DNA of 46,670 nucleotides, filler included, from Jimgerdemannia flammicorona (lineage: Eukaryota): NCBI GenBank assembly GCA_003990765.1. It is 2 parts of 2 records of this genome, joined end to end, with 100 filler letters (N's around TTAATTAATTAA, not from the genome) between each part and the next. Parts side by side here need not be neighbours in the genome. Positions count along the whole stretch, not along the records: positions 23,389 to 46,670 come from RBNJ01001125.1; 1 more part is not named here. One strand, 5' to 3'. Position 1 is the stretch's first letter. Each line of letters begins with the position of its first letter. Positions 13,396-43,512 of this stretch are shown one piece after another. The notes beneath the pieces were generated by a model that saw only the letters and a program-made list of their open reading frames with translations, was not told the origin of the DNA and ran no database searches. The position numbers were made by a program, and so were the translations under genes.

Positions 13396-14069
13396 TAAAA
13401 ATGAAAATAAGAATACTCTACTATAATAAAAATAACTCAAAAATATACTAATTAGCTACTAAGTAATAAATATATCAAAAACACTAGTTACTAAATTTTA
13501 ATCAATATAAATATCTGTTATATAATCTATAATATAAATAATAAACTTTAAACTTTAAGCCAAAACTACTATGAGAATATAAGAAGATTGTAAAAGCTTT
13601 TATGTATATATAGTACATTAGTTATGTTGGAAGTAAGAAATACAATTGAATACCATAATATTTATTTCAATAGTTTAAACCAAACTGTTTTTATTATCTA
13701 TGAACATCTGTAAACCATTCACATTTTTTTTTTATTGGTGATTGACAAATACATCTCTGAATTTCAATAGCTTAAAAATCATGAATTATGAAAGCCGTGC
13801 GAGCTCCCAATATGAGCAACCTGCAATTGGCCAAAGGTAGTCTAGAAACATGCCAAATAACGAAACAGATGTTCATTTAATACAGGTGCTATTCTGGTCA
13901 TATGCGATATTCTATTTAGTGGAAAGAGTGAAACAGGATAGGTTATCAAAAAGCTAGAGACCACATGTGCACCCAACTATTTGGACTACCTGTTAAAATC
14001 TTTTTCTTCAAAGAGAGAGAAAGATAGAAGTCGGCAAATTGCCAGAGCCACCTATGGGCCCAATGATCT

Positions 14070-16228: not shown

Positions 16229-16245
16229 TCTCAGTTGAGCTCCCA
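16229..16245 (-). promoter_or_regulatory. Primer-binding site, probably tRNA-Pro type
   Basis: TGGGAGCTCAACTGAGA lies 2 nt after the LTR end and differs only by transitions from TGGGGGCTCGACCGGGA, which resembles the tRNA-Pro PBS TGGGGGCTCGTCCGGGA. Confidence 0.65.
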
Positions 16246-16247
16246 AA

Positions 16248-17585: not shown

Positions 17586-17685
17586 ATTCAGGTGCCAAAA
17601 AAACACCTTTCACCAGCAAAATTCGGGTGACACAAGACTCAGACAACACTTTTCACTATGTTTTCGGTGTCCAGCGACTATCAAT

Positions 17686-19601: not shown

Positions 19602-19631
19602 GCTGGGGTCTCTATTGCAACATTTTTCAAT

Positions 19632-22600
19632 ATGAACAGTATAATTAAGATATTCTTGTTGAATATTAATGGGTTATGGGGGGCAGCTAGGAGGAAGCAT
19701 ATATTTAGATGGCTTAAGGGACTGAATGCAGACCTCTTCTTGTTACAGAATGTTTGTTATGAGGCAGATGTGGACTTACTGGATTGGACTAAGGAATGGG
19801 GGGGCACGGCAGTTTGGAGGGGGAAAGTGTGTATTCTCATTCAGAAGGGGATGGGAGACATTGAGGATATTGGACATTGGGGGTCTAGTGTGGTATGGGA
19901 AATGTGGAGGAGGCCTGGATGGGGCTCATTGACAGTTGGGCCCTGTTACTGCCCAGCTGAGAGAGGAGAGAGGGTGGAGTGAATTCGCGGATTGAAGGAG
20001 GCTGGTGTATTGGGAGAAGTTGGGCTGGACTGTATGGGGGGTGACTTCAATATGATATGGGATAAGGAGTGGGATAGAATAGATGGAGGGAGAGGCATGT
20101 GGGGGGAAAGTGGTGGGTTGGGTGACTGGTTGGAGACAGAGAGGTTGTGTTCTCTAGTGGATTTAGGAAGACATTTTTGGGCTGAGCAGCAGATGTATAC
20201 CTACTGGGCAGCAGGGCTGGGCTCCAGGATTGACTGGGTCCTGACAGCAGAGTGTTGGGGAGTGGATGTCTGGTTGGCACTGGAAGTAGTATGGTGTCCA
20301 TGGTCTGATCACTGGGGGCTGCTTGGAGGGGGGAGGTTTGGGGGAAATGAGGATGGGCCTGGACATTGGCAGCTAAATTCTTCCTTGTTGGAGGATAGGG
20401 AGTTGTGGGAGGGCTGAAAAGTAGAGGTGGTGGGAAATATCAGTAGGTGGCATGAACAAGGCCTTGGGATTGAGGACTGCTGGAGATGACTGAAGGTGAA
20501 TGCTCAGGGGTATTGGAGGGAGGCAGGGAAAGGGAAGTGTGCTCAGCAAAGGCAGAGGGTGCTGTGGGCCTTGCAGCATCTGGCTACACTCATGGAGAGG
20601 TGGGCAGGTGTGCTGGAGAATTGGGACATGTCTGATTGGTATATTGTTAGAATCTGGCAGGAGGTAGAGGAGCTTAAAGGAGTGTTGCGAAGGGAGGAGG
20701 AGGTGAAAATGCAGGGAATAGTGGCCTGACTATGGTGGCAGGGGCTTGAGGAAGGGGAGAGGCCTACTATGTTTTTGTCACAATTGTTACAAGCATGATG
20801 AACGAAACAGCAGTGGGAGGGAGTTCTGGATGAGAATGGCAAGCTGGTGGTAGGGACTCTGGTGATTCTGGGCCTATTGAGAACCAGTTGAGAGAATCTA
20901 TAGAGTGAGGAGAAAGGTGGAATAGATGCTCTGGATGTTGAAAGACAGCTGGGGGATTGGCACCCAGACCCTGCAATGGGACTTGGGGCATTGGGGAACC
21001 TGGTGAGTGGCGAGGAAATTCACAGGGTTGTGGCCTTAATGAGTAAGGGGACAGCCCTGGGAGAGGATGAACTTCACTGGGATTTTTGGCAGAAGATGGC
21101 TGGGGTGGGTGAGGTGCTAGAGGAAATGACTGCTATGTATGATGGAGTTCATCGGTCTGGTGCCTGGATTGGGAGACAGAGCTTAGGGCTAGTCTCCTTG
21201 CTCTACAAGAATAAGGGGAGACGAGAGGACTGGAAGAACTAGTGGCCAATTATGCTTCTCGATATGGACCGCAAACTGGTGGCAAAGATCTTGGTGATGA
21301 GGTTGCAAGGAATCGCTCAGCAGGTACTTGGGGTGGAACAGCATGGGTTTGTCAGTGGTCAGTTGATTCGAGATGGGACAGCTTGGGTTCATGGAGTGAT
21401 TGAAGGTGCCTGGGCATCAGGAGTGGATGGCAGATTGGTGTTTCTGGACCAAGAGAAGGCCTATGATAGAGTGCAGAGGATATGGCTTGAGGGAGTGCTG
21501 AAACGAATTGGGATTCCCCCAGGGTTTCGAGGATTGTTGATCAGCCTCCTGGAAGACAGTTAGGTGGCATTGGTCATTAATGGCCACAGGGGGGTGACCT
21601 TTCCCCTGGGATGTGGGGTGCCACAAGGGGACCCATTGTCACCCATTTTGTATGCCCTTTCCCTAGAGCCTCTACTGGATAGAATTTGGTAGCAGATTGG
21701 GGGTTTGGACATTTTAGGGATTAATTGGAAGGTGGGGGCCTTTGCTGATGATATGGTGGTTGGGCTGGGCTCCTTGGTGGATGTGGGGGAGTTACAGAGG
21801 TCTGTGGATTGGTATGAGAGGGGTTCTGGTGCTAAACTAAACTGGCACAAATGCGAGACTCTGGTGCTAGGTGCTGGCATTGTTGGTGGCAATGTCATTG
21901 GGACAGTAGTACTGGCTGGTGAACCAGTGTGTTATTTGGGAATCTACTTTTCAGTGTTTGGGTCTCTTCTTCCCTGGGCATGGTGGGACTGTCAGCTTCT
22001 GGAGTGGGGAAATGTTCTGCTGCATTGGAGAGGCCGGCATATGTCTCTAGCCAGAAGAGTGATGGTACTGAATGTGTATTGGATACTGAAGCTATGGTAT
22101 GTGGGATATCATTTGGATTTCTCAATCTGGGTGGTCAAGGGGTTGATGAAGATGGCAAGGTCATGGATCTGGGGAGGGCAGCGAAGCCAGATTGGTTGGG
22201 AGGTGCTCACACTGCCCTTGGAAAGAGGTAGACTGGGCTTAGTGGACTTTACTAAGTGGCTTCTATGTCTGAGAGCTTGGTGGTTGTGAAGGATGAGTGA
22301 GCTTCAGGGTTGGGAGTGGGTGCTACTCATGCAGAGGTTGTGGGAGGTTTGGTACTCCCCACGTGGTGACTCAGGTGACCTGCTTGCGATGGTGGCCATG
22401 GAGGGGAGTAGGAGGATGCAGTTTACAGGCTTCTGGTGGAGGGTGGTGGATGGCGCTAAGAAAATTGGACTTCGCTGGTGAGGTGATGAGGCCGAGGAGG
22501 ATTGGGGACCACAGATGTGGCAGTGGGACAGGCTGCTACTGGGTGGTGTTCCGGTGGAGAGCTTTCAGCTTGGTGAGGGTCTGGAGTATCTGCGAGGCCT

Positions 22601-23288
22601 AGGTGGAGATTTATGGCCTGAAGCCTGGCAGAGGGTTGAAATTGGCAAGGAATGGGACTGGCATGGACTCTGGCTTTGGAGCAAAAGGGTGAGGCAGTGG
22701 CTGTCCCCCAAGTTCTGGATGGTGTGGTGGTGTGTCCTATGGTAGAATGTGATATTGAACTATCGGTCAGGGCACTTGGTAGATGGTGGGGTATTTGAGT
22801 GTGAGGATTGTTTCAATATTGGTCAGGAGGGAGGAGTGGTACAAATACCTGAACATTGGCTTGGTGAGTGTGAGGTTTTGGAGGAGTTTTGGAGATGTAT
22901 TATAGACCGGGTAGGGCTGGGTGCCTTGGAGGGAGGGGGAGGGGGGAGATGGGGAGAGCTCCCCCGGCGACTGGTGGGTGGGGTTGGGGATGAATAGCTG
23001 ACCCTTGGTTGGGCTTTGGCTATGTGGATTGGGTTGGCTGGGCATTGGGTTCATGTCTTTGAGGATGGGCATCGGGTTGGGGTTGGGGATAAGGTGGTGC
23101 ATTGGGATTGATTGCTGTTGGACATTTTGAATAGCTGGTGGCAGGGTTGGGGGCTGGGTGGGGGACACCACAGGGGTTTGGTATAGTGTATCTCTCGGAA
23201 GAGTGGTGGGAGGATTCAGATAGTGGGTAATTGGGTGGTGCTCGGGCAGGGGAGATAGAGGGGGGAGGGTTGGGTCCAAGGGGCATTG
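19632..23288 (+). pseudogene. LINE ORF2: apurinic endonuclease + reverse transcriptase + C-terminal CxxC...H...C
   Basis: APE motifs NINGL, GGDFN, SRIDW, SDH. RT motifs KN*WPIMLL, DQEKAYDRV, GVPQGDPLSP, AFADD. CEDC...EHWLGEC at ~22800-22871. Interrupted by several in-frame stops; end approximate. Confidence 0.93.
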
Positions 23289-23388
23289 NNNNNNNNNNNN
23301 NNNNNNNNNNNNNNNNNNNNNNNNNNNNNNNNTTAATTAATTAANNNNNNNNNNNNNNNNNNNNNNNNNNNNNNNNNNNNNNNNNNNN
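23289..23388. other. Artificial contig spacer (N44-TTAATTAATTAA-N44)
   Basis: Exactly 100 nt, with a six-frame-stop linker at 23333-23344. Confidence 0.95.
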
Positions 23389-23617: not shown

Positions 23618-24084
23618 CTCAGAATCTAGGACTGGAACAATCTGAATACAACTTTTGAGTACTTCCCCACAATATTCCTTCACATAACTACTCCTAGTAT
23701 AGCAATATAATGAATAGCGAATAAACCTATTTAATAACCAAACCACTCTTAAGTAAATCCACTCCCTGTTAGGTCCTACTCCTAACCCCATCACGAAATT
23801 TCCTAATTGGGTATTGTCTGCAGTGATATACCAACTCAACTAAGCTGGTCTTAGTTTCTTGAACTTCCTGAAATATGGAAAATCCTGAACATTCAGAATT
23901 AGTCCAAAAAAGGACTTTAGTTGAGACATTAACCCGATCTTGAAATCAATAAGCATAGAGGATGTACTCCATATGAAATTGACCTTGACCATAAGAAAAC
24001 AGTCTTCCAGAATATCCAGAACTTCCAGAAAAATCCTTCTTGAACTATATAATGGTTACCCTAAAAAGCAACCCTCTGATAACT

Positions 24085-26117: not shown

Positions 26118-26516
26118 ATCAAGTTAAGACAAACTACTAAGGCCCCAATCAAAGGAAGTCAAAAGGCAGCTGGATATGACCTGTATGCAGCTGAAGAAGC
26201 TATAGTTTCCAACTGAGAAGTCAAACAAGTCTATATAGGAATCAGTATCCAAATCCCTGAAAGACATGTTGGAAGAATATGCTGTCACAGTAGCCTAGTA
26301 TTGAAAGAACTCTCAGTAGAAGGAGGAGTCATTGACAAAGACTACACAGATGAAGTCATTGTTCTCATCTAAAACCACAGTTGGACATCCTTCAAGATCC
26401 CTATTGGTTTCTGCATTACCCAGATTCTATTTGAAAAAATCGAGTCAACTCTGACAGTCAAGGAAGTCCCTAAACTACTACCTACCATCCAAGGATCCAA
26501 AGGATTTAGCTCATCA
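26118..26516 (+). pseudogene. dut: Trimeric dUTPase domain between nucleocapsid and protease of element 1
   Basis: AAGYDLY, GRICCHSSL (RSG-like), GGVIDKDYTDE, ITQ, QGSKGFSSS correspond to motifs I-V, with two transition-type stops. Confidence 0.9.
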
Positions 26517-29500
26517 AACAAGGCCCCAACCCAACCTACCACAAGCAAAGAAGAACAATTCTATAAGAAAATCGAAGACAGATATGTATGTACCAAGTGG
26601 CCGATGTCTCTATGGTATTGAAATGTACTCATCCCAAATAATTGATGATTGCTTCTCTTGTGTCAACGAACTGGCTCAAAGAAGAACCAACAGAAGAAAA
26701 GCTCCTACAACCGAAATTACCACCATTGAATCAGACAAACTGCTTATACTTAAAGCTTTTGTCAACCGAGCACCTGTCAAGATTATGATAGACAGTGGTG
26801 CCTCAGGCAACTTCATCAATAAAGAGACAGCCAACAGACTCAAGGTCTTCACCTCTCCTGTACAACAAACTCAAGCAGTTGCTACAGCTGATGGAACCTC
26901 ACATATTATTAGCAAAGAAGTCTGTAATTTACCCTTCCGAATTAGTGACTACTGAGTACATGTTACCCTCCAAATTGTACCACTTCCTGACAATGAAATC
27001 ATCCTTGGAACCCTATGGTTAAAATAAGAGAACCCCATGATCGATTGGGTAAACCATTCTCTGACCATCAAGAAAGGATGCCATAACTTCAAACTATAAG
27101 GTGAAAAGGACCCACTCAACTCTAGTGACTCTGGACCAAAGATCACTCATATCAATAAGCTACAACTCAAGAAATTGACCAAGAAATACTCTCTTTTCGC
27201 AATCTCCATCTGCCCATCCAAAGGAGAACCCAAGAACTCTGAAGAAGACTTTTCCAAAGTTGATAGCCGCATCAGACCACTACTCCAGAAATTCCAAGAC
27301 ATATTCCTGAAGAAGCTCCTGAAAGGCCTACCTCCCAAACAAGTAGTAGACCATACCATCAAGACTATTCCAGATGCCAAACCAGCCTTCAAGTCAATCT
27401 ACCATATGTCTCCAAGAGAAATCAATACACTCAAGAAAGAAATCAACAAACTCCTAGAACAAGGATTCATCAGACCCAGTATATCACCCTATGGTACACC
27501 AGTCCTCTTTGTTGTCAAAAAAGGAGGAGACCTATGAATGTGTATTGACTACCATGACCTCAATAAACAGACCATCAAGAACTGTTACCCACTACTGAGG
27601 ATCGATGAAATATTTAATAAACTCACCAACCTGCAATTTATGAGCTCCTTTGACCTGTAAAATGGTTACTGGCAAATTGTCATGAAAGAAGAAGATATCT
27701 ACAAGACAGCCTTCTGAACTTACTATGGATACTTTGAGTTCCTGGTTATACTCTTTGGCTTAACTAATGCTCCAGCAACCTTCCAGACACTGATGAATAT
27801 CATTCTGCATCCATACCTGAACAAATTCATTGTTGTCTACATTGATGACATCCTAGTCTTTAGTAAAACCCTGGAGGAACATCTCGAACACCTTGAACTA
27901 GTACTACTGAAACTCTGAGAAAACCAACTCTTTGCAAAACTCAGCAAGTGCAAATTTCTCCTAAAAGAAATCCAATTCCTTGGACACATTGTCATACCAA
28001 ATGGAATTAAGATAGATCCCAGCAAAATCTCTGCAATCAAAGATTGGCCCAGACCCAAGAAGTTGAAAGACCTCCAGTCATTCCTGAGATTAGCAAACTA
28101 TTATAGGTGATTTGTTACTAACTTTGCTAAAATCACTACTGCCCTCACCCAAATGACCAAGTATAGCAAGAAAGAAGAATAGCCCTGGACCACAAAATAA
28201 GAAAAAGACTTCAACAATCTTATAAATTGGGGACCTGAGCAAGATACCACCTTTCAAGCACTAAAGGATGCCCTGATAACCACTCCAGTACTTCAAGCAG
28301 CAAACCCTGCACTACTATATGAAGTTACCACCAATGCCTCTGACCTAGCCCTTGAAGCAGTACTCATACAAGAAGGACTATCATTTCCATAAGTTCAATG
28401 ATGTGGAAATCAACTATGCAACCCACGAGAAGGAAATGCTAGCCATCATAGACACCCTGATCAAATAGTGACCATACCTAGAAGGATCACACTTCACTAT
28501 ATTGACTGACCACAAGTCATTAGTCAACATCAAGACACAGGCTACCCTTTCTCGAAAGCAAGCCAGATGGATGAAAATTCTCACCAACTTTAACTATGAA
28601 ATCCAGTACTACTCTGGCAAGGAGAATATTGTTGCTGATGCAATCTCAAGACTACTGATCGAAGAAGTTATCCAAACTCTTACTCTGGTTACCAACTCTA
28701 TCATGAAACAAATTATCACAGCATGCACTGATGATAAAGAAGCTCAAGTACTCTGAGAAACCCTGAACAGTGATGATGCTGACAAGCATACACAGTATCA
28801 TTAATACCAACTAAAGGACAATGCTATCTACTATAAGAACAGACTATATGTTCTAAACAACCAAGACCTCCAAAGGACTATTCTATTCAAATATCATGAT
28901 GCCCCTATAGCTGGACATTTAGGATTTGATAAATGTTATGAAGTTATCTCCTGAAACTTCTATTGGTCCCACATGGCAGATCAGCTCAAGACCTACATTA
29001 CTTCCTGTGATGCCTGCCAAAGGAATAAGTCCTCAACACTAGCAAAACCTGGCCTACTCCATCCTATTCCAGTACCATCTGCTAATTGGAAACAAATCTC
29101 TATGGACTTCATTGTACAACTACCCCAAACCAAGAATAAAAAAGATGCAATTGTTGTCTTTGTGGACTATCTCAGCAAACAAGCCCACTTTGTGCCAACT
29201 ACTATAAATGTAATAGCACCAGACATAGCCACACTATTGTTTGACAACATCTTCTGCTATCATGGTCTTTCTAAGATCATTGTTAGTAACCAAGACCTGA
29301 AATTTACCAGCCATTTTTGAAAAGCCCTCCATGTGCACCTTGGAACAAAACTTGCACTATCTACAGCCTTTCACTCTAAAACTGATGGCCAAACTGAAAG
29401 AATGAACTGAACTCTGGAACAAATGCTGAGGAACTATGTTTCCTACAGACAAGATGATTGACACGAATACCTCATTGCAGTCAAGTTTACCTATAACAAC

Positions 29501-30385
29501 AGCAAGTAAGCCTCTCTTAGAATAACTCCATTCTTTGCCAATACTGGACAAAACCCAAACACTCCTCTGACACTTATCCAAACTACTGATTAACCCTCAA
29601 CAGTTAAGGCTGTTGAAGAATTCCTATACCAAATGTGCAATCTAAGCCAGATTACAATTGAGAACTTATTGTGAGCTCAAGAACAATAGTTACAGTATGT
29701 TAACCAACATTGCCAAGAAGAAACCTTTGACATTGGAGAAAAGGTTCTACTAGACATCTGAGGATACCGAGTTGACAACCTTAAGCACAGACCATCTACA
29801 AAGCTGAATAGCAAGTTCATTAGACCATTTGAAGTCATCACACAAGTCTCTCCTACCTCCTACAAACTGGTGCTACCAGACACCATTAAGATTCACCTAG
29901 TCTTTAATGTCCAATATCTCAAGTGATATAATGAGAACAATGATGAGCTATTTTCAAACTGGACCACCAAACCACCTGCACCTGTTATTATTAATGACCA
30001 AGAAGAATATGAAGTTGAATAAATCCTCAACAAATGTAGCCACAAAAACCACCCAGAGTACCTTGTCAAATAGAAAGATTACCCAATCCATGATGCAACC
30101 TGAGAACTCAAGACCAATCTCCAGAATGCTACCAACATAGTTCAGGAATATGATTTCTTGAACAACTGAAATACAAATACTTCAATACCATCAGTACATA
30201 CTAAAAATATTATATCTCCTGAATATTATAATTATCGCAAACCAAACCAAGAACTCAGCAAAACAAGACAAGAATACTGACCCTCTGGAAAAATAGCAAA
30301 ACTGAAAGCAAGCCTATTCTTTCTATACTACTGAACAAAATTAGAAGGCCCCGATGAGGACATCAAAAGCTAAGAAGGGGAGAGT

Positions 30386-31427
30386 TGTAAGTGCACAACC
30401 TCCAAGCCACCAAAATCACACATCACCCTCTAAACAAAGCTACTGAAATTACATGTAACCTTCGAACAAATCTGGAAATCACTTGCTTGATCACGAAGCT
30501 AAGTTAACATGAAGTCACAGAACATAAGATTTACATAAACAGAATCTTATTAATCAGAACCAAATGTATATATACTGAGTACCGAGATGTGTTGAACAGA
30601 GAACCAAAACAAACAACAACCACAACTTCTGAACATACCCAAATATGACTACTGAGATCTACAACCACATTCATGCTGACATTTGGAATGCCATTGTCAA
30701 CCAAGCCACACCCCCTCTACCCCTCATGAATATCCATAACCTAGCACCCCTTTACTTCATGGAAGCCTGATGGAATGCCCTGAACATGCTTAACGAGGTC
30801 TACCAAATTGGACAAATCTCAAGCTACTACCAGATTGGCTGTCTCCTGGAAGACATGGTCGAATACTACCATGATACAGACATTACTCAGATGTCTCAAC
30901 ACCAGAAGCTTATTGCTTGCAAACATCAAGAACTCTTCTATGAATATAGCATTGTTATTTCCTGCCTCCAAGTTACCACAGCTGAAATGATTGCTACCCT
31001 ATCCTATGGTCAAATCAATGACATGATATAAGAACTCAACCACAAGTACCTTGAGTATGTTGAAACCACAGACAGAACCTTCCCACACCCCAATGATCAT
31101 ATCCTGCAAATGCCCCAAGTTATAATATAATCCACTTTGATGAAGACAAAGCAGAAGACAATGATTCCTCTGATGCTGATATGACCTCTAGCCAAGGATC
31201 TCTGCCAACTCTGATCACACCACTAACCTTACCAATGAACTTATAACAGTTTATAACTACCTATGAAACTTATTGGAACAATGACCACTGGTATGAATAC
31301 CAACCTGCATTTATCTATATGAAATTGATCTTGACCATAAGAAAACAGTCTTCCAGAATATCCAGAACTTCCAGAAAAACCCTTCCTGAACTATATAATG
31401 GTTACCCTAAAAAGCAACCCTCTGATA
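30386..31427 (+). repeat. 3' LTR of element 1, containing ORF-X; probably internally deleted
   Basis: Starts TGTAA right after the PPT. 31317-31427 matches 23970-24081, but the 5'LTR segment 23618-23969 has no counterpart here. Confidence 0.8.
30645..31318 (+). pseudogene. Accessory ORF-X inside U3 of element 1 LTR
   Basis: MTTEIYNHIHADIWNAIV...PPLPLMNIHNLAPL...QISSYYQIGCLL...LIACKHQELF...ISCLQVTTAEMIATLSYGQI, then an acidic stretch after a frameshift near 31110. TATA-like TGTATATATA at ~30565. Stops at 30768 (TGA) and 31029 (TAA). Confidence 0.75.
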
Positions 31428-32725
31428 GGAGCATTATAAGAAGCCAATGCTCTCTCTATAGCTGACTTCCTGTACTGAGAAATCAGCTTCCACTATAAGA
31501 CACCAAAACAAATCATCACAGACTGTGGCACAGAATTTGTCAATAGATTCTATGAGATAATGTATCAGAAATACAAGATTCAGTACATCAAGACCACCAC
31601 ATACCACCCTCAAGGAAATGGATAGACAGAAAGAACCAACAAAACCCTCAAGAACATCCTGGTAAAGATTTCAGACATATACAAAAATTGGGATAACTAC
31701 CTCCTAACTGTCCTCTCTGTCCTACAAGACATACAGTCACAGAGTACACACTTTACTCCAAGAGAACTGCTCTTTGGAGAAGAAGATTCCAATGAAACCT
31801 CAGTCACAAATCTAGATCTAACTTGGAGATAAGTTGACTTAGAAATCCAGAGACTATACTAAATCAGGAAGAAGGCTGAAGATTACATCACCAAGTTACA
31901 AGCACTGATAAGAAAGAATGCAGAAAAGAATCACAAGACTCTAGAACCTATCCAAATCAGAGAAAAGGTCCTACTGTATTGAAATATAATAGAAGCCTTA
32001 TGGTTGTGAAAACTAGAGTCCAAATAAGAAGAACCCTTCTATGTACAAGATATTAAGAGGATTACCTTCTGGCTTAGAAAACTCTCAGAGACCATACTGT
32101 CTACCATAGTATATAGGAACAGACTCAAAAAGTATCATGAACCTATTGTAGTATGTGGTTTGTATCCCTAGTTGCTTCTGGCATGGCTCAATGTGCCACT
32201 TGGTGAAGCGCGCAATGTATAACTGAAGGCATTGGTGATGTTCGCAGGTTGATGGTCACGTGACAGGTCATTCGATTCGTGCAGTAATTGATAATAGCGG
32301 GACTTTGATTGTTCAACGATGGTGGCTCAATTGTTTAGTGGATAAGGGCATTCCTGGTGGTGATTAACTTGGTGGCGATTAACTTGAACTTATGTGGTGA
32401 CAATGGGCTTGGCTTTAAGCAGTTCGTGGCACAGTAGGTCGAGAAAACGGAGGTTGATGGCTCGCTCATCCATCTTGGTTAACTTGAAAGGTTCCTGGTG
32501 GTCGTTTGGGTCTTTAGCAGTAGTCTTGTATCCTTTGGCTGGGTAACTTGGGTTCCTTGGGTTCTTTAGCTGTGTTGCCAGGGTCTTGAATCTCGAATGA
32601 TGGTCGAATGCACGGTCCGAATGGCAGTCTGAATGCACGGCGGTTGTAGTCTTGAATCCTTGGCTAGGTCTCGGGTCTCGAATGGCGGTTGAATGGCAGC
32701 AGTCGGGTAACATTTTCTTTCCATA

Positions 32726-33057
32726 GCAAGAGAAAATTCTTTAACTCAAACTTCTGAGTGATCTGTTGCTCTAGGTTGTTATCTTGTTCTCAGAATTTAT
32801 CCAGTCTCTTGGAGGTAGTGGTTTCTTTGTAATCCTTTTTACTTTTAAACACAAACTGACTGACTTGCGGGTGGTCCATGGTCTTGAATCCTTTTTGTGG
32901 TGGCAAAACTTGAAATTCAGGCGGCAAGAGAAATTCCTTAACTCAAACTTCCGAGCGATCTGTTGCTCTAGGTTGTTATCTTGTTCTCAGAATTTTCCAG
33001 TCTCTTGGAGGCAGTGGTTTCTTTGTAATTCTTTTTACTTTTAAACACAAACTGACT
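32726..33057. repeat. ~135-bp direct duplication within solo LTR C
   Basis: 32726-32861 and 32924-33057 are nearly identical; differences include CTGAGTGA vs CCGAGCGA (CpG>TpG). Confidence 0.9.
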
Positions 33058-33530
33058 AAGGTTTATTCACTCTAAGAATATGGGTTATTTATACAAGTTT
33101 GCTAGCTATGGACACGGCTAAGATATACTATATTGTAGTGAACATTCACTATGCTATTGGCTTGCATGATGCGAGGTGCAGGCTATTGTTTACTACAGAT
33201 TGGGTTGTAGGGGATAGTAATGCTGGATTCGGATGAGCAGACAGGAATACTGATTGTTGCCAGAAATGGTTGTGGAGAGTGGCAACGCTGAAAACAGGTA
33301 TGACAATTGTTTGCGCCAAATTGGGATAAGATGAGTGCTAGTGCTGGATATGGATGTTGTGGGTGGTATCGCCGAAAACAGGTGTTGCTAACTTGCTGAC
33401 AAAACGCTGAAAATGGTGGCACTGGATAGCAATGCTGGAAACGGTTGTGCTGAGTAGCAATGCTGGATTCAGACTTGCTGACTTGCTGACATGAAGGCTG
33501 CACAATTTTCACGGCTGACGAGTGGTATTT

Positions 33531-34517
33531 CTAGAGGAAATAGTACCCTTTGTCTGCGGCAGGCAAATCTTGCTGGGTTAAGATTTCTTCTTCATCATAC
33601 CTCTCTTCAAAAGGGGGAAGCACCAGCCAAGAGGTGAGGGGGTAGAAAAGTGGCCAGTCATCTTCAATAACATTTTCCAATCCCTGAACTACTTGAATGC
33701 AGACAGAGGACTGGTAGACTCTCTGTTGCTCCTCTTCTTCTTCTGAAGACTTGTCAGTTTCAGTGTCAGAGGGGGTTTCTTCAGGAGCAGGGTCTTGGAG
33801 TTCTTGGGCCTCCTCTTTGAAGACAGGAACTTCTTGGGTTTCTTCTCGATTCGGTTCCCAAATGATGAGGTGTGAATTGTGGCTGACAGAGTGGTGAGTG
33901 GTTGGGGTAGCTCCAACAGGTGCCTCTATAATGATGGGTGGTCCTTCAAATATCTCCATAAGACTCATTAGGTGACCTTGATGGTTGTCTTGGAGTGGAG
34001 TAGTGTGGGAACCTGGCTGAGTGAGTTCAGTTTGTTGGCTTCCTACAGCAATGTGGTTGCTGCCAATAGAGTTGGCTACTTCAGATTCTATCCAGTCAGT
34101 ATCTTTGGTTGATAGGTGGGAGAGGCTACCAGCTGTTACTCCTTGCAAGTGTGCTATAGCCCAGGGAATATGGCAGAAGATTTGGTGGACATGGAGGGCT
34201 CTCTTGATTAGCCGGCTGGTGGTTAACAATTCGGTAATGAGGTCTTCCCGGTCATCTTCTTGAGTCTCATTGTAAAGGCAGTGTCCGATTTCGTAGTCAT
34301 GCCAGAGGGTCATTCGTTTGGTAGTGTCTTTGAGCTGTTGGGTCATTATATACCGGTAGTTGATGAAGTGTCCAAGATCCTTGGTGTAGAAGTTCAAGTA
34401 TTCGGAAGTATCTGGGTGCCAGATGGCCTTCTTGATAGCTTCAAAGATCAGGGTCTTTGGGCCAGGCAAAGGGGTAGAGCAGCGGGAGGTCTGGTTGGAT
34501 CAGCGAATGGGAGGTAT
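33531..34517 (-). CDS. Accessory ORF-X, best-preserved copy (312 open codons; probable original ATG now ATA at 34517-34515 and one early TGA)
   Basis: IFEAIKKAI...HFINYR...LWHDYEIGHCL...KRALHVHQIFCHIPWAIAHLQGVTAGSLSHLS...acidic tail. TATA-like TATTTAA at ~34579-34573. Confidence 0.75.
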
Positions 34518-35347
34518 TATGTGGTGGGTATTTGGTTCTTTGGTACCGATCCCTGAGGTAGAGTATGGTTCCTTAAATAATGTGGTCTTCATTTTGGCTC
34601 AGATCATCTTGTCTTCTTTTGGGATGATCACCTAATAGGTCAGGCTGTCTATTTGATTGTCACGCCATTAAGTCATCTGATCTTAGCAGTCACTGGTACT
34701 CTGTTGTCAATTGTATACATTACACTATATAAGAGAAGTAAAATGTAATGACTACCTATAAGGTTCTTGTTCATGAATCATAATAGTATATCCTTTAATC
34801 AGTAAACAATCTGTCTGGACCATTCTCTAAGAGATATAGCACCAGCAACTACTCATCTATAAGACTTTCAAAGCCAGAGGAGTTCAAACTGTCAACTGAT
34901 TGGTCAAGATCAGAATCAGGTCCTTGCTCTATATAAAGAGAGTAACTCTTCACCATCATGCCAAAATATATAGAGAAGATACTAGTCCATAAATACCACT
35001 TTTTGACTCTCTGCCAGAGGTTATAGAATTAGCAAATTTTTCAGAACTGGACTAATGAATAAGGACATTTAAGAAGATTCTTATTCAGGAGGAAGATATA
35101 ATGGTAACCTCAGAATGATAACATCAGTACAGGAGATAGCCTTCTTTATAAGCCATCAGATCAGAAGGAGATCATATAGCATGACTCACCTAGGCTATTA
35201 AATGAGTAATGATGACCAACTGTGAGTCATTGTGACTACAGTACAGGTATCTTGAGGAATATAAAAGAAGGATCAAGGAACTGCAATAGCAGTAACTTAA
35301 CAAGACCCACTAATCCCAAAATAGCTCAAAGACTTACCACAAATAAA

Positions 35348-36157
35348 ATACCTGCTGCTTGCCAAATCTCAAGGTCAAGGAACAACCAAGGTCTCTCAGT
35401 CAAAGAAAGGATGTTCCAAAATATCAGAAGAGCTATGAGAACCTATACAAGAAGGACTCCTAGTCTCAACCTGGATACTAAGAATCCTTATCACTTTATC
35501 TTCTACTACTATGAAATAGAAACAAGGATCACCATTATTACTAAATATCTCCAAATATAGTAGAAGTACAAAATAAGAAATCTTCTCTGCTGGGAATTCC
35601 CTCAAGCCAGCTCTCAAGAGCTACAAGATATCACTCTTATAGATATATATAAAATAAGAACAGCCAAGAAGATTCATCAGATCTTTAGATATATACTATA
35701 GTTAATCTCTAATTTGGAGTATACCAGAGTCTCAGACTTCAGAGATCTATCAGTCCACTGTATCAATGCACTAGAAGCCAGAGTGGCAACAGAAGCTCAG
35801 TCCACTATCACCTTTGATAGTGATGAGATAGAAGAGTTCTGGTATCTCATCCTCCAGAACAACCCAGATCAATTCCTATAAGGATTGATCTCTACATTCT
35901 AAGGTCCAAACATCCAGATTAGATCTCTCCAAGATCTCATATTTATTCCTTATTTTGTAGAAGAGAACCTCATAGACTAAAGAGCCCCAGATCTTCTTAC
36001 TCTCCCCACCACTGCCAAATGTAATGACATTATCAGCAATGATGTCATCTTATATAACATATGTGAAATGTACAATGAAACTGATCTCATCTCCTTTGAA
36101 GACATCCTGACCTCTGATGAAGATGAAGCTCCTATAGTCCTGAATATTCTGCTCTAA
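35348..36157 (+). pseudogene. Accessory ORF-X inside U3 of family B 3' LTR
   Basis: Single frame of 270 codons, start ATA (ATG in the other LTR copy), with transition-type stops. Lies upstream of TGTATAAATA (~36415) and AATAAA (~36444). Confidence 0.75.
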
Positions 36158-37663
36158 GTCTCTTGGTTATACTAAATTATAATAGTATTCTTTTCCTATG
36201 TAACAGCTATTCCTCTACTGGTATTTTGACCTTATGTGACTCAGAATTATTCCAGCACTCTTTTCCTATACCACCAAAATTATACCAGTATCCTAAACCT
36301 ATACAACTATCTGTACTGACACTAGAACTTAGCAGTTTTCTGTATTCCAGTATTTTATTTGGTTATTAGAATTTATATTTAGCTTTATATCTTAGCAACT
36401 ATTAAATTATATTTTGTATAAATACCCCTCTTATTTCCTTCAAAATAAAGTTAGTTCCTCTCAATACAATATGTATAATTTCTTATAAGCAATCTAAAGA
36501 GATAACAAGACAGTTTAAAGATAAGAAGTTTGAGGACTATAAGATCTTGGAAAGATACTCCAATAAGAACTTACTTATAACAAACTTGAGTTAGTCTAAG
36601 AGATACACCTTGAAGAGAATCTGATATATTTGAAGAACTCAGCAACCACTATGTGACAATATATAAAACTAAAGAGTGGTATTATTTTTATTTTACTCTC
36701 CTATATTATTACAAGTAATTTCTAGATATTTCTTATCTTTATTCAATTGCTTAATCTTATCAAAGACTAGACTAAGTATACTATTTAGATCTTTCCTAAG
36801 AAGTTCATTCTCATTTAGTATATAATTGATTTATTTTCATACTACTTCATTCTGAATATCAAATAAATATACTTTGTAAGTACTAAGATAATATATCTTA
36901 TCAATCTATTGATCTGAATAGAGTACATAGATATTTTAGACTTAGTTATAACTATAATAGGTAATAATATCAATATTGCAATATTGAGCTATATTATATA
37001 TTTATCAATAGATATTGATTGATGAGTTTCTATATTCTTTTATCAACTTAGTATTTTTATTATATATAATAATTTTATTCTAACTTGGCTTTTGTAAGAT
37101 ATTCTTTATATTTCTTTAATAAATCCTAGATGTCTTTCTCTTTATAAATATTGAATTGTAAGTTATTTTATAATATTAATAAATATTATATAAATTATTT
37201 CAGGGACTTATAATTTTTAGAAAACATCAAGTATATACAGAGTATTATTTTCTTCTAAACTGATTAAAAAGTCATAGTGAATAGACTTATAGCTCATTTC
37301 TATTAGCAAAAAGATAATTTATTATATAACCTAATTAATATTTCTGACTAGACTAGATAATCTATATACTTTAGTATAGTTTAAGAGAAATTTTTTTACT
37401 ATAATAGTGTAATGGTGACCTCAGAATAATGATATCAGTATAAGAGACAGTCTTTTCTTATAAGCCACCAGATCAGAGCACAAGAAGATCATATAGCATG
37501 ATCACTCAGACTACAAGATGAGTAATGATGACCAACTGTGAGTCATTGTAACCACAGTATAGGTATCTTGAGAAATATAAAAGAAGAATCAAGAAACCAC
37601 AGTAGCAGCAACTCAACAAGACCCACCAATTCCAAAATAGCTCAAAGACTTACTATAAATTAA

Positions 37664-38500
37664 ATGCCTGCTGCTCACCAAACCTTAAGGTCAAGGAACC
37701 ACCAAGGTATCTCAGTTGAAGAAAGGATATTCTAAGACATCAGAAGAGCCATGAGGACCCACACAAGAAGGACTCCTAGTGTCAACCTGAGTACTGGTGA
37801 CTCTTATCACTTTATCCTCTATTGCTGTAAAATAGAAACAAGGATCACCATTACTACTGAATACCTCTAAATATGGCAGGAGTATGAAACAGGAAACCTC
37901 CTCTGCTGGGAGTTCTTACAGGCCAGCTCTCAAGAGTTACAAGATGCCACTCCTATGGATATATGTAAAACAAGAACAGTTAAGAAGATCTATCAGATCT
38001 TCAGACATACATCATAGTCAATTCCCAACTTGGAGTATGTTAGAGTCTCAGTCTTCAGAGATCTATCAGCCTACCATATCAATATACTAGAAGTCAGAGT
38101 GGCTATAGAAGCCCAGTCTACTATCACCCTTAATGGTGATAAAGTAGAAGACTTCTGGTATTCCATTCTCCAGAACAACCTAGATCAATTTCTATAAGAA
38201 TTGATCTCAGTATTCCAAGGCCCAAGCATCCAGGTTAGACCTCTCCAAGACCCCATATTTGTTCTCTATTTTGTAGAAGAGAATCTCATAGACTGGAGAG
38301 CTCCAGACCTTCTTATTCCTACTGCTGCCAAATGTGATGACATCATCAGTGATGATGTCATCCTACATAATATATGCAAAACATGTGACCTATGTGATGA
38401 TAATGAGATGGACAAAACATTCATGAACCTCATCTCCTTTGAAGACATCCTGATCTCTGATGAGGATAAAACCCCTATGATCTTGAACATTCTGCTCTAA
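37664..38500 (+). pseudogene. Accessory ORF-X inside U3 of family B 5' LTR
   Basis: ATG 37664 to TAA 38500 in one frame (278 codons, four stops TAA/TAA/TAG/TAA): RIF*DIRRAM...HFILY...IWQEYETGNLL...KKIYQIFRHTS*SIPNLEYV...DLS...ELISVFQGP. Main TATA ~38795 and AATAAA ~38823 lie downstream. Confidence 0.78.
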
Positions 38501-38540
38501 AGTCTCTTAGTTATACTGAATTATGTCAGCACTCTTTTCC

Positions 38541-38564
38541 ATAAAAAAAAAAAAAAAAAAAAAA
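38541..38564 (+). mobile_element. Poly(A)-only retro-insertion with 15-bp TSD
   Basis: AT+A22 flanked by TCAGCACTCTTTTCC at 38526-38540 and 38565-38579; absent from the sister LTR (~36180). Confidence 0.9.
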
Positions 38565-41238
38565 TCAGCACTCTTTTCCTATATAACAGCTATTCCTCCA
38601 CTGGTATTCTAATGTAACTCAGAATTATTCCAGCACTATTTTCCTATATGACTGAAATTATACCAGTATCCTGAACCTATGCAACCATTAGTGCCAATAC
38701 TAGAACTTAGCAGTTATCTATATCCTGGCATTTTATTTTAGTTATTGGAATTCATATTTAGCTTCATATCTTAGCAACTATTGAATTATATTTTATATAA
38801 ATATCTCTCTTATTTCCTTCAAAATAAAGTCAGTTCCTCTCAGTATAATATATATAATTCCTTGTAAGCAATCTAAGAGATAACAAGACAGTTTAAAGAT
38901 AAGAAGTTTGAGAACTATAAGATCTTAGAAAGGTACTCCAATAAGAACTTACTTATAACAAACTTAAGTTAATCTAAGAGATACACCTTGAAGAGAATCT
39001 GGTATATTTGAAAGACTCAGTAATCACTACATGACAACTTGGTATCCATTGGCTGGTGATTCAAGATGAATCTCTCACTTTCAAGCTGAAAAATAAACAA
39101 CCACTACAACAACTACTCTGACTACAAGAGTCACCTCTGTAAGAATTCAAGATAAGATAGAAATATATCCCCCCACATTCTATGAATATACTACTGAAGA
39201 GTCAATCCTGACCTTTATTGAAGACTTTGAACAATTTGCCACCATACAAGCCCTTGGTGTGGATGCACAATTGGCCCTTCTACCAGTCAGCCTCAGAGGA
39301 CCTACTAGAGACAAGTTTAATGTAACCACTATTGCTAATAATGATGCAGCCAAACTTGCTAACATGAAGGCCTTCCTCAGAATAATATACTATACTGAAG
39401 AGATCAAGCAAGCTCTCAAGGATCAACTCAATACTATCTGCCAGGAACTCAGTGAAGATCCCAACTCATTCTATACTCAAATCTACCACCAGATTGTCCT
39501 GGCTGGCTATAATGATGCTCTCAAGGAACAAATAGCAGATTCAATCTTCCTTAAAGGAGTTCACTCTGAAATTGCCCTAGCAATCTAGTATACTCCAGCT
39601 GCACTGACCCTTGGTCAGAAAGTGGTCTTTGTACAAAGATATTGAACTGCCAGACATCTTGCCAAACACTCAATAGAGAAAATAACTGGCATCAAGATGG
39701 AGCCATCAAAACCAACTAGTATCATACCTACCACAGTTGTAAATAGACAACTATCCCCACCTACCCCCAAGACAGCCAAAGCTGATCCAGTGGAGGAACT
39801 TGCCAAGCAGTTTGCTGAGATGACTGCATACCTTGGTGATATTGTTAGAGAAGTCTGAAGCACCAACAGGAGACCAGTGCAGAGATTTTCAGCTACTATA
39901 GAAGAATGCAATATCACATACTTCAGATATAGAGAAGAAGGCCACTATGCAAAGAATTGTATGACCAAAACAAGATGCAAAGCCCAACCAAGCAATGCTA
40001 GCAGAACTAGAGAACAAACCAATACAGTAGTCATTGAGGAGATCAGTGATACTGATGATAAAGAATACTATGAGGAGTTTGAATTTTACCCTACTACTAA
40101 AGGTACCAGAACCCAGTCCAAGTCTTATGACAAGAAGAGCAACAGCAAGCCAGTTGGAAGACCAAAGAAGATCCCAGCTATCACTATTCAAAGCAAGACT
40201 CAACTCAAGAAGATTGATCAGGACATAGAGTTAGATGAAGCTGCCTACCAAATCATTGAAGGCACTACTCCAGTCTCAGGAGAAAGTGAAAGCAAGAAGA
40301 AACAGAAGCTGTACAAGACCAAGATCCACTAGTATGATATCTATAAGGACCTTAAGGAACAGAAGATCAATGCTACTTTTGGACAGCTAGCTGAAGTGCC
40401 TGCCTTCAGACAGCAGTTGAGAGTAGGACTTGCAACTACTGTCAAGAATCAAGAGTATAGGATTGTAGAAGCTTACAATGCACAGGAAGAATCTGAAAAC
40501 TCAGGTGAAGAATCCAAAGACTAGTACAAGACATCAGCCATATCCCATGTCAGATTGAAGACTATATCTTTAATGCCATCATTGATACTGGTGCTGGAGA
40601 ATGCCTCATGAATAAGAAGGCAATTGACTGCCTAGGCTGGGATATTGAAGAGTCTACCAAGATGATCTATGTTACAGCAGATGGTATATAAGCTACCCTC
40701 CTTGACAAAATCTGAGAAGTCTCCATCAAGATAGGAGGAGCTACTATCTCAGTAGATATGATTGTTACAAGTACCACCAACTATAATATCCTCATTGGCA
40801 ACTAATGGCTTCACAAGACCAAGGCCATCATTGATCTCAATGCCCAGAAGATGTAGATCAACTATAGAGAAAGAAAGGTATGAGTCTCTATCAATGTCCA
40901 CAAAAGAGTCTTACCAGACATAGAGAAAGGAGATGAAGAGGATACAGAGGTCTTCATGCACTCAGTGAACAAGAACAGGAACAAGACACCCAAGCTCACA
41001 GATGAGCAGTAGTATAACAAGATTATCAATAACTATGTCCCTCAAGGAAGATGCCTCCATAGTACTAGGATGTACTGCTCTGAACACCTGAATGACTGCT
41101 GGTTCTATATCAGTGAAGTCAGGAAAATCCACCAACAGAAATATGAGTAAGAAGCTGCCAAAGCAAAAAAGGAAAGCTGAAGAAGATGACCAGCCCCCAG
41201 AGCTTTAAGCTGACAGTAATGATGAACCAGATATCACC

Positions 41239-41649
41239 CTCAGGATTAAGAAGTTCTACCCCAAAGCCAAGATCCCAGAATACAAGACTGAAAAAGTCAT
41301 AGAAATAGACCTTGCCAGCATTCAAGATGCTACTCTTGAACCACAGACCACCACTCTACTTGGTACTAGAATTGGAGTCAAGCTGCCAGAGAACTATGCT
41401 GGAATTATCAAGACCAGGAGCAGTCTGGTCAAAAGTGAAATCTCAGTTGAAGGAGGAGTAATTGACTCTGATTACACTGGCAAGATCTTCCTCATAGTCA
41501 GAAATCATAACCCTACTACCCTATTTGAAGTCAAGAAGTATGACAGGATTGGCCAGATGCTGATCAACGAAATCAAGAAGCCCAAGATCACTGAAGCCAT
41601 CAAACTCATCAAGACTAAGAGAGGAGAACAAGGCTTTAGATCTACTGGA
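41239..41649 (+). pseudogene. dut: Trimeric dUTPase domain between protease and RT of element 2
   Basis: LRIKKFYPKAKIPEY...IDL...GIIKTRSSL...GGVIDSDYTGKI...DRIGQM...RGEQGFRSTG. Confidence 0.92.
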
Positions 41650-43120
41650 AGAGGAGCCTATACTACTATCAAGATTACTGAACTTGAACACAAGAAAGAC
41701 AAGGACCAGAGTAAGCACATATATACTATTGGAGAAAACTTTCTCCTGGAAGAACAACTTCTCAAGATCCTGCACCATAATGAAGGAGTACTTGCTACAG
41801 ACTTTAGGGATATCTACAATCAAGAACCCAAGTACTATCATGAAGTTGACACTAGTGATACCAAGCCCATCTACCAGAAAGCCAGATCCATACCACCTGC
41901 CTATAGAGAATGGCTGTGAGCAGAACTCAAGAAAATGGAAGAAGCTGGAATCATCAAGCAAGCTATCAGTCTCTGGGCTTCACTCATTGTCCTCACCCCA
42001 AAGAAAGGAAGCAAGTCTGGAGAGTTTGTATCAAGACTCTGTATTGACTACAAGAAGCTCAATACCATCACCAAGAAGGATAGGCAGCCCTTGCCAAATA
42101 TTCAAGAAATCCTTACCACTCTTAGAAGTGAAGCCAAATACTATACTACCTTGGATCTGTTTTCAGACTTCCATCAGATTGGTCTCACTCAAGATACCAG
42201 TGAGAAATCAGCCTTCATCACATCTGATGCCACCTATATCTACCTGTGAATGCCATTTGGAATGTGCAATACCCCAGCAAGTTTTCAGTAAATGATGAAC
42301 AGAGTCTTCAGCAATGAGATTGGAAAATAGCTCTTCATCTATATTGATGATATGATCATCTTCAGCAATACTATATGGGAATATATCAATTACATATAGC
42401 TAGCTCTCAAGAAGCTCAAAGAGCATGGTCTCTATATCAAGCCCAAGAAATATAAGTTTGCTACTCAGGAAATTGCCTACCTAGGATACCTCATCAACCA
42501 GACTGGAATCTACACAGACTCCATGAAGATTGAGGCTGTTGCAGCCTACTTGAGATCCAGAATAACTACAAAAGTCCATGCCTTCCTTGGACTGGCCAGC
42601 TACTATAGAAGATTTATCAAAGGATACTCCAACATTGCAGCACCTATCTATGAGCTACTGAAGAAGGAAACTAAATTTGAATAGACCAAGGAATGCCAAG
42701 AAACCTTCAATGAACTCAAGACCAGATTGATCCAAGTACCTATCCTCAGAAGACCAGATTGGAACCTAGAATTCATCCTGCAGACAGATGTGGGTGCTAT
42801 AGTACTTGGAGCAGTTCTAACTCAGAAGAAAGATGGACATGAATATGTCATCTCCTATGCAAGCTGAGGTACCTGTAGAGCAGAATAGAACTACAAGTCA
42901 TGCAAGCTTGAATGCTTAGTAGTAGTTTGGGCAGTAGACAAGTTCCACTACTACATATCTAGCCAGGAAATACTTCACTATTCAAACAGACCATTCCACT
43001 CTTGCTTAGCTATTCTACACTCTGAACCCCAAAGAAATATATACCAGATGAATCTACAAGCTGCAAGAGTATGACTATATGGTCAAGCACTACTTAGGAA
43101 GAACCAATACCAATACTGAT

Positions 43121-43512
43121 TAGTGCTCCCAAACAAGTCAAATCAATTCGAATCAAATCGAATTGAGGGTTAAACAAGTCAAATCGAATTGGGGATTTTT
43201 CAATTCGAATCAATTCAAATCAAATCAAAAGTCGAATTGAATTGAGGGTCTAATTTGAACCCTAATTTTCAAAATGCAATAACTCAGCGTAAACTCATCT
43301 AAATATAACATACTTTAGCTTGTTAGAATCACATTAATACGGTGAATCTAACAAGCTAAAATATGTTAAATTTAGATGAGTTTTCATTGAGTTATTATAT
43401 TTTGAAAATTAAGGTTTGAATCGAACTTTGAATCAAATTGGACCTTTGATTCAATTCGAATCAAATTGAATTGGACCCTTGATTCGATCGAATCGAATCG
43501 AGTTTGGGCTAA
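43121..43512. mobile_element. hAT-type MITE (left TIR, subterminal repeats, central palindrome); right end displaced by an LTR
   Basis: Starts TAGTGCTCCCAAAC (fits the hAT YARNG terminus). TCGAAT/TCAAAT repeats; imperfect hairpin 43254-43420. Confidence 0.72.

Follow-up and report, generated by a model that had tools for sequence, protein, structure and literature searches.

ORF-X, an unnamed gene family resident in long terminal repeats of Ty3/gypsy retrotransposons in Jimgerdemannia flammicorona

Background

A family of protein-coding genes, here called ORF-X, is carried within the long terminal repeats (LTRs) of Ty3/gypsy retrotransposons in the genome of Jimgerdemannia flammicorona (GCA_003990765.1). 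The DNA analysed, referred to as the window, is a stretch of 46,670 nucleotides (nt), and the copy under study is an open reading frame (ORF) at positions 33531-34517 on the minus strand, located in a unit of family C. Two further copies occur in B1 and B2, two LTRs of family B. The gene family, its conservation and its location in the LTR were observed directly. A preliminary description of the same DNA had proposed an accessory protein family that is encoded in the U3 region of the LTR, is shared by four LTR-retrotransposon families and possibly acts as a transactivator or anti-silencing factor. The LTR-resident accessory gene family is real and unnamed; the breadth of the four-family claim and the proposed function are not yet supported.

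Results

A protein family without an assigned Pfam family

Five reading frames of the window had been aligned by eye in the preliminary description: those of C, B1 and B2, one in a chromovirus (element 1, E1) and one in a further family, A. A family profile consisting of the eight non-window rows of alignment A2 was run on the six-frame translation of the window and matched the C, B1 and B2 frames (E 1e-66 to 1e-97, Table 1); for A and E1, tblastn on the window gave no match to B or C. Judged by these sequence comparisons, ORF-X is a real protein family lacking an assigned Pfam family, as had been suggested: in Pfam none of the five window translations scored above the cut-off (best E 0.0088, below threshold), and a profile search of PDB sequences returned 0 matches. 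A gag origin of ORF-X was considered and rejected, since hhalign comparisons with two gag ORFs of the window gave E-values of 0.41 and 0.62.

Intact relatives are present in public data. In a word-indexed search of 5.8 billion protein clusters, the C frame retrieved P0001, a protein of 325 amino acids (aa) with 76% identity over 94% of the query (E 9.8e-153, 6 members), and a second cluster, P0002 (200 aa). These clusters are unnamed or labelled "hypothetical protein" and are all metagenome-derived, and intact C-type relatives of 324-331 aa are found in public metagenome data. A phmmer search of 1.84 billion representatives with P0001 gave 10 matches at E <= 1e-3, five of them at E <= 1e-10, including P0008 (8.6e-21), P0009 (342 aa, 4.1e-20) and P0010 (247 aa, 5e-15) at 31-35% identity, together with the more distant P0014 and P0015; P0019 (205 aa) and P0020 (246 aa) are cluster mates of these two. 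The profile search of protein representatives returned 10 proteins. Intact versions of the B frames of the window are represented by P0010, P0022 (271 aa) and P0023. A scan of metagenome contigs with the C-type alignment gave 145 pattern matches, 0 of them confirmed, and a scan of viral contigs gave 31, again with 0 confirmed; a second scan of metagenome contigs identified one locus, L001, which is described below.

Within the window, the C and B2 frames are 26% identical over 176 aa (tblastn, E 1e-8 to 1e-10). The family shares the blocks LN..DLGHF, W.EYEIGH, AKK.HQIFRH.P..I.N, L.DNPDQ.L and FEGPPI and a terminal DD..PL.LNF, and pairwise identity outside these blocks is 24-32%. Between the C and B LTRs the sole tblastx match falls in the ORF frame, the flanking LTR DNA being unalignable; it is therefore the protein, and not the DNA, that is conserved between them. 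Intact frames of 205-342 aa occur in at least six deep lineages, besides the two B copies and the one C copy of the window. ORF-X is thus conserved over many copies and lineages of its carrier elements and is not a one-off transduction. All window copies are decayed. In the C copy, the five leading codons (34517-34503) encode IPPIR, with a stop codon next; the corresponding start of intact relatives is MPPTRR (MPPTRRSNQ). After this stop, 322 codons are open (33534-34499, minus strand), up to the stop codon at 33531-33533.

ORF-X inside the LTRs of families B and C

The placement of the B and C frames inside true LTR boundaries is borne out by TG...CA termini, a polypurine tract, a primer-binding-site (PBS)-like sequence followed by gag, and a target-site duplication with an empty site. 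Of the two B repeats, B2 is followed by PBS-like ACTTGGTATCCATTGG (TGGTATCCATTGG), gag, dUTPase and reverse transcriptase (RT), and B1 directly follows a polypurine tract. The internal sequence upstream of B1 is 31428-32146 plus 34725-35096, the continuity of which is shown by the empty-site contig described below. B1 and B2 are 81% identical at the nucleotide level over the aligned part, with 66% amino acid identity in ORF-X, and their flanks are mutually unrelated; they are the 3' LTR and the 5' LTR of two different B elements. ORF-X spans +257 to +1093 of B2 and +252 to +1061 of B1, so that the B copies sit within true LTRs.

The C unit has the termini TGTAATG...ACTACA, is flanked by ATAG on either side and interrupts the integrase tail of the B element that owns the 3' LTR B1. 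Contigs of four public runs, three of them soil metagenomes of one study and one from a coded organism, were placed on positions 31400-39100; these runs matched the window with small shares (0.05-0.12). In the X4 contig (record 26, 406 nt; one contig of one run), 31850-32142 continues directly at 34725-34837, skipping 2,582 nt, and four letters at the joint (32142/34725) fit both sides. This contig represents the empty site, which identifies the C unit as a discrete insertion with a duplicated 4-bp target. The term solo-LTR-like is used for the unit in view of its B-like termini and of ORF-X, which it has at the position seen in B. The earlier suggestion that ORF-X is left behind in solo LTRs agrees with this unit, for which both a matching empty site and a target duplication are present. 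The presumed U5 of the C unit contains a direct duplication of about 136 nt (32726-32861 and 32924-33057, 95% identity, 198 nt apart).

The order of elements is common to the three repeats, in all of which ORF-X is sense-oriented: the TG start, about 150-170 nt, a TATA-like motif (+169 in B2, +164 in B1, +146 in C), about 60-90 nt, the start codon (+257, +252 and +208), the ORF of about 270-330 codons, several hundred nt, a second TATA (+1387, +1321 and +1632) paired with AATAAA (+1416, +1348 and +1658; that is, 29, 27 and 26 nt on), U5 and the CA end. In B2 the upstream motif is TATAAAA at 37576-37582, 88 nt 5' of the ORF. Both a TATA-like motif ahead of ORF-X and a position between the TG start and the main TATA/AATAAA had been noted in the preliminary description, and both hold in B1, B2 and C.

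In retroviruses, a TATA that places the transcription start at or just past AATAAA keeps the poly(A) signal off the 5' end of the genomic RNA. On this basis we take the downstream pair for the main promoter and terminator; if it serves the genomic RNA, ORF-X would lie in U3, which is the most economical reading of the B and C sequences. Alternatively, the upstream TATA could be the only promoter, with a short U3 (about 200 nt) and a very long R that contains ORF-X as a leader ORF ahead of gag; ORF-X would then be the first cistron of the genomic RNA, repeated at the RNA 3' end. B2 has no ATG between the upstream TATA and the ORF start at 37664, and the LTR of rice Retrosat2 offers a precedent, with a U3 of 243 nt, an R of about 2 kb and ORF0 5' of gag-pol (PMC3485330). 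Against such an arrangement, an ORF of 270-330 codons plus about 600 nt ahead of gag would hinder gag translation, and the conserved TATA/AATAAA pair 3' of the ORF in B1, B2 and C resembles that of a usual short-R LTR. We regard the leader arrangement as unlikely and retain the U3 placement.

Some side observations concern the decay and the 3' part of the B repeats. Decay is strongly biased to transitions, with 135 transitions and 13 transversions between B1 and B2, and at the sites where the metagenome contigs placed on 31400-39100 differ from the window, it is mostly the window that has A or T and the contigs that have G or C (for X1: A>G 202, T>C 238, C>T 120, G>A 83); the decay of the window copies fits the cytosine-deamination type. 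A run of about 25 A (38541-38566, plus strand) lies just 3' of the B2 ORF between two copies of TCAGCACTCTTTTCC. It was considered as the mark of a retroposed insert, and this was dropped, as the flanking motif is merely repeated in that part of the LTR. Metagenome depth falls sharply over 38339-38595 and over the corresponding part of B1.

Reading frames of element 1 and family A

The claim of four families was secure for B and C only. Element 1 carries, as had been noted, a reading frame about 260 nt into its 3' LTR; its layout is near that of B, with the start codon at +260 versus +257. An intact relative, P0029 (128 aa, 80% identity), ends at the same stop position (31029-31031). The family-A ORF has intact relatives of 171-172 aa with acidic ends (P0031 and P0032) and lies between pol and the expected 3' LTR side, with no repeat or polypurine tract marking an LTR around it.

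The two frames match each other only faintly (tblastn: 29% over 48 aa, E 0.02-0.04), and the family profile run on the window gave E 1.9 for A and 3.4 for E1, with negative bit scores, in the correct frame and colinear. For hhalign, each window ORF was grouped with its own intact relatives, and two gag ORFs served as controls. The E1 group against the family scored 29.1 (P 7.5e-4, 102 columns), a value reached by 0 of 200 column shuffles (maximum 22.8); the A group scored 17.8 (E 0.1), reached by 8 of 200; and E1 against A gave E 0.003. From these alignments, the E1 ORF is a probable, shortened remote relative of the ORF-X N-domain, and a relationship of the A frame to ORF-X is marginal. Accordingly, two of the four families proposed (B and C) are secure; E1 counts as a probable member and A as a marginal one, the frame of A standing after pol and not in a shown LTR. 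Acidic C-terminal tracts, which had been ascribed to all five frames, are present in C, B and A and absent from the natural E1 ORF of 128 aa.

The two ends of element 1 are unlike. Its 5' LTR (23671-24081) shares only the last 114 nt (23968-24081) with the 3' LTR, at 96%; its ORF-less upstream part recurs at 4160-4588 (73%), and the ORF-bearing part (within 30386-31313) is unique to the 3' LTR. In the Podospora element crapaud, 7 of 150 full copies were reported to have disparate LTRs, which were ascribed to gene conversion or ectopic recombination (PMC10787394). Runs of N lie just 5' of the 5' LTR of element 1 (23289-23332 and 23345-23388). The family-A element (14552-16249, minus strand) joins a gag CCHC zinc knuckle (PF00098, E 1.3e-4) almost directly to the integrase C-terminal module and is without protease, RT, RNase H and integrase core; it looks like an internal-deletion, non-autonomous derivative.

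A relative on outside DNA

The metagenome locus L001 carries an intact ORF of 291 codons with TATAAAAG about 80 nt 5' of its ATG, and its leader is 90% identical to that of B1 over 29 nt. At 1252-1272 a 12-nt purine run, GGAGGGAGGA, comes directly after the stop codon and is followed by TTGTAAT, an arrangement that resembles the polypurine/LTR junction of element 1. When L001 was included in a multiple DNA alignment of LTR starts, nothing beyond this polypurine/TGTAA junction was informative. Because of the L001 arrangement and the position of the A frame right after pol, the cassette may sit on either side of the LTR boundary, and we take these two cases to suggest that the ORF-X cassette is able to do so.

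Another reading is that ORF-X is a passenger, a fragment of a host or foreign gene captured once by an ancestral element and without a role in its life cycle. Gene capture by LTR retrotransposons is known (PMC7264820, PMC5408684), and L001 and B/C seem to differ in where the ORF stands with respect to the polypurine tract. Two points argue the other way: no cellular homologue was found among the 1.84 billion representatives or 5.8 billion clusters, all matches being on short unnamed metagenome contigs, and retention of the frame and its motifs across lineages at 24-35% identity argues for protein constraint. We consider a passenger origin very unlikely and keep to an accessory gene with a role in the element. 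Since the B and C LTRs have the termini TGTAATG...ACTACA in common, they may owe their relationship to descent and not to gene capture.

Protein features

An AlphaFold2 model of P0001 (11 sequences) is helical across residues 20-150, where the block predicted local distance difference test score (pLDDT) is about 60-90. FEGPPI is followed by a short strand region, and from residue 232 onward the tail has pLDDT <50. The N-domain was not folded alone, and fold searches with the P0001 model were without a match: Foldseek against PDB gave a best E of 0.52, VIA-align wide a best Z of 3.2 (none >= 5) and BFVD a best E of 0.03 (none at E <= 0.001), and ESM Atlas had no usable match; for this model we do not claim "no known fold". 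In nine of nine main-family proteins examined, the net charge of the C-terminal part lies between -11 and -27, with D+E fractions of 0.19-0.30 and bulky hydrophobic fractions of 0.16-0.34. In composition only, such a tail resembles acidic activation domains. Pfam, Foldseek/PDB and VIA-align recognised no DNA-binding family or fold in ORF-X.

Carrier elements and other features of the window

According to Pfam searches of 66 stop-to-stop frames and of read-through pol tails, the window consists of nested retroelements (Table 1). In the RT region, element 1 is about 33-35% identical to family B and about 50% identical to the minus-strand chromovirus; the carriers are truly different families. 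The B-type integrase tail shows no chromodomain and element 1 has one, in line with the earlier statement that carriers include a chromovirus and non-chromoviruses.

Table 1. Positions of ORF-X copies, LTRs and carrier elements in the window
Feature	Position	Strand	Details
Family-C unit, 2,578 bp	32147..34724	-	Start TGTAATGTAT, end CATACTACA; sequence reading, termini, empty-site contig
ATAG target-site duplication	34725..34728 (upstream copy); 32143-32146 (other copy)		Sequence reading; 4 shared letters at empty-site joint
Family-C ORF-X	33531..34517	-	Start codon missing, one in-frame stop at codon 6; profile match 34484-33630, E 2.6e-97
TATA-like TATTTAAGG	34571..34579	-	62 nt 5' of ORF start position, +146 in C LTR
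C LTR, candidate main promoter/poly(A) pair	33062..33093	-	TATAAAT, AATAAA 26 nt on (start to start)
B2, family-B 5' LTR, 1,629 bp	37408..39036	+	TGTAATGG...CATGACA; sequence comparison; gag follows from 39097
B2 ORF-X, 278 codons	37664..38500	+	4 in-frame stops; profile match 37709-38494, E 1.2e-70
B2, candidate main promoter/poly(A) pair	38794..38828	+	TATATAA 38794-38800, AATAAA 38823-38828
B1, family-B 3' LTR	35097..36658	+	Start TATAATGG; polypurine tract AGGAGGAAGA 35087-35096 directly 5'
B1 ORF-X, 269 codons	35348..36157	+	6 in-frame stops, start codon missing; profile match 35381-36151, E 1.5e-66
Element 1 (chromovirus)	26455-29317; 29300-30385	+	Protease, RNase H, integrase zinc domain; SH3_Tf2-1 and chromodomain (Pfam)
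Element-1 3' LTR	30386..31427	+	Polypurine tract AAGAAGGGGAGAG 30372-30384, then TGTAAG (junction 30372-30391)
Element-1 ORF, 128 codons	30645..31031	+	1 in-frame stop; ATG at LTR +260, TATATAT at +182
Family-A ORF, 160 codons	14070..14551	-	2 stops; directly after integrase C-terminal domain
Family-B Ty3/gypsy element	gag from 39097; dUTPase 41209-41916; RT	+	Pfam
Further chromovirus	46668-44250	-	Pfam
Non-LTR elements	~5.5-13.4 kb; 17.6-23.3 kb		Pfam

Several further features were noted. The dUTPase domain of family B (PF00692, E 5.2e-25) lies within pol, 5' of RT, and element 1 has a weak dUTPase relic (26373-26618, plus strand; E 5.5e-4, below the cut-off). Fungal gypsy elements have been described as carrying dUTPase, and they are drawn with an "additional ORF with unknown function" (PMC2864245). 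An inverted repeat of 132 nt with a 9-nt spacer (43201-43473) stands at the point where the family-B element breaks off. The two non-LTR-like elements (5467-13400 and 17587-23288, plus strand) are related, with 65-70% identity in pieces, and are G+C-rich (up to 55%) with a very strong GC skew; one of them has an RVT_1 match and an endonuclease/exonuclease/phosphatase match just under the cut-off (E 8.2e-5). A 1.3-kb repeat occurs in two inverted copies (2480-3771, plus strand, and 17560-16250, minus strand; 84% identity, 12.5 kb between them), which are probably LTRs of another family. Frames at 390-2405 (plus strand) resemble a host gene and have no Pfam match; for 1064-1825, an ESM Atlas feature search pointed to AAA_35/STAND-type ATPases with scores of 0.90-0.94, which is a lead only.

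Discussion

Proposed role of ORF-X

The explanation that we favour is that ORF-X is a true accessory gene in the U3 of the B and C LTRs, with its own mRNA and a role as a nuclear trans-regulator, and we assign a probability of roughly 65% to this reading as a whole. On this reading ORF-X is a protein-coding accessory gene in the long LTRs of related Ty3/gypsy elements from a host whose repeats also occur in soil metagenomes. The upstream TATA would drive a separate mRNA of about 1.2-1.5 kb ending at the poly(A) signal of the same LTR, and if this holds, any LTR, whether at the 5' end, at the 3' end or solo, would be a gene complete in itself. A conserved helical N-domain of about 170 aa followed by a disordered, strongly acidic and hydrophobic-rich tail may correspond to a nuclear trans-acting regulator, one that activates transcription from the LTR or counters silencing by the host. 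The role as a transactivator or anti-silencing factor is proposed, with low confidence, from the composition of the tail. A further step, in which the LTR, solo LTRs included, is an autonomous gene (promoter, ORF and terminator) for a family-wide nuclear factor, is tentative and in our estimate doubtful.

A number of points weigh against this explanation. We infer the transcript, the U3 assignment and the function. The window holds no family-C internal sequence, and a full-length C element was not seen. The fold model of P0001 is only moderate (mean pLDDT 59). In L001, to judge from its sequence, the gene seems to stand just before the 3' LTR and not inside it. The B1 and B2 ORFs differ at 55, 39 and 54 of 269 sites each at codon positions 1, 2 and 3, respectively, counts that have no clear coding bias, as expected if both copies decayed after insertion in a mostly neutral manner. 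Near-identical intact copies differ largely by changes of R to C, H or W, and they may have kept their frames open through youth as much as through selection.

A third alternative is that the frames are non-functional: relics or chance frames kept open by constraint on the LTR DNA or by the youth of the copies. Consistent with this, five of five window copies are broken, and the B1/B2 comparison is without a clear codon-position bias. Against it, the same comparison has two indels in the ORF, of 30 and 3 nt, both multiples of three; amino acid sequence is conserved where the DNA is unalignable; and intact frames of 205-342 codons persist in at least six lineages. We judge non-functionality to be the least probable of the alternatives. 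The case for constraint is made by motif-level conservation together with open frames in at least six deep lineages.

Implications

LTRs are usually annotated and masked as non-coding, which may explain why the family appears only as "hypothetical proteins" on short metagenome contigs. Should each LTR express ORF-X, a solo LTR would be no inert scar but a potential source of protein, the dosage of the gene would rise with the number of LTR copies, and the family would provide a handle on retrotransposon self-regulation or resistance to silencing in a genome rich in transposable elements. If the LTR were indeed an autonomous gene, ORF-X would be the first LTR/U3-encoded protein family outside retroviruses, and solo LTRs could go on supplying a family-wide helper function.

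Comparison with known systems

The sag gene of mouse mammary tumour virus (MMTV) is located in the U3 of a retroviral LTR. ORF-X resembles this "LTR ORF", a term that in the literature searched refers almost only to MMTV sag, in being an ORF of about 300 codons in what is read as a long U3, 5' of the candidate main promoter signals; the analogy is one of position only. Unlike Sag, for which the searches gave no sequence or fold match (BFVD best E 0.03, PDB none), ORF-X appears as a helical domain with an acidic tail, in a non-vertebrate host. Full-text searches, which covered the main text of papers available without subscription, turned up no report of a protein-coding gene lying in sense orientation within the LTRs of non-retroviral LTR retrotransposons.

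Complex retroelements encode transactivators, such as Tas/Bel1 of foamy viruses and Tax of human T-lymphotropic virus (HTLV). The Ty3/gypsy element Cer1 of C. elegans encodes a regulator, CERV, which is a precedent for a regulatory factor encoded by a Ty3/gypsy element (PMC10309623). By our proposal only, ORF-X would be like Tas/Bel1, Tax and CERV a small non-structural nuclear protein with its own mRNA; no homology to any of the three was detected. It also differs from CERV, which is produced from a spliced mRNA and serves RNA export (PMC10309623).

Among plant elements, rice Retrosat2, RIRE3 and RIRE8 are Ty3/gypsy elements whose LTRs are unusually long, and they too have an extra ORF in sense orientation and of unknown function, ORF0. 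Its evolution is much faster than that of gag-pol, and it is set apart from ORF-X by position, being located in the internal region 5' of gag-pol and not in the LTR (PMC3485330).

A further related class is that of the additional ORFs (aORFs), which in plant LTR retrotransposons are described as occurring in either orientation, for the most part between pol and the 3' LTR; a text search of that review for a location inside the LTR gave 0 matches (PMC7264820). Like the aORFs, both the env-like or antisense ones of plants and the antisense gene brtn of the Botrytis element Boty (PMC8365987), ORF-X is an extra, family-specific Ty3/gypsy ORF of unknown function that evolves faster than pol. The family-A ORF, directly after pol in the usual aORF location, and the L001 arrangement fit this class well. 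The B and C copies do not, being sense, in which they also differ from brtn, and inside the LTR, so that they are duplicated at both ends of the element and kept in solo LTRs. In this respect ORF-X offers a counterpart, outside retroviruses, to genes encoded in U3 such as MMTV sag; it also suggests a possible route by which a post-pol aORF becomes an LTR-resident gene.

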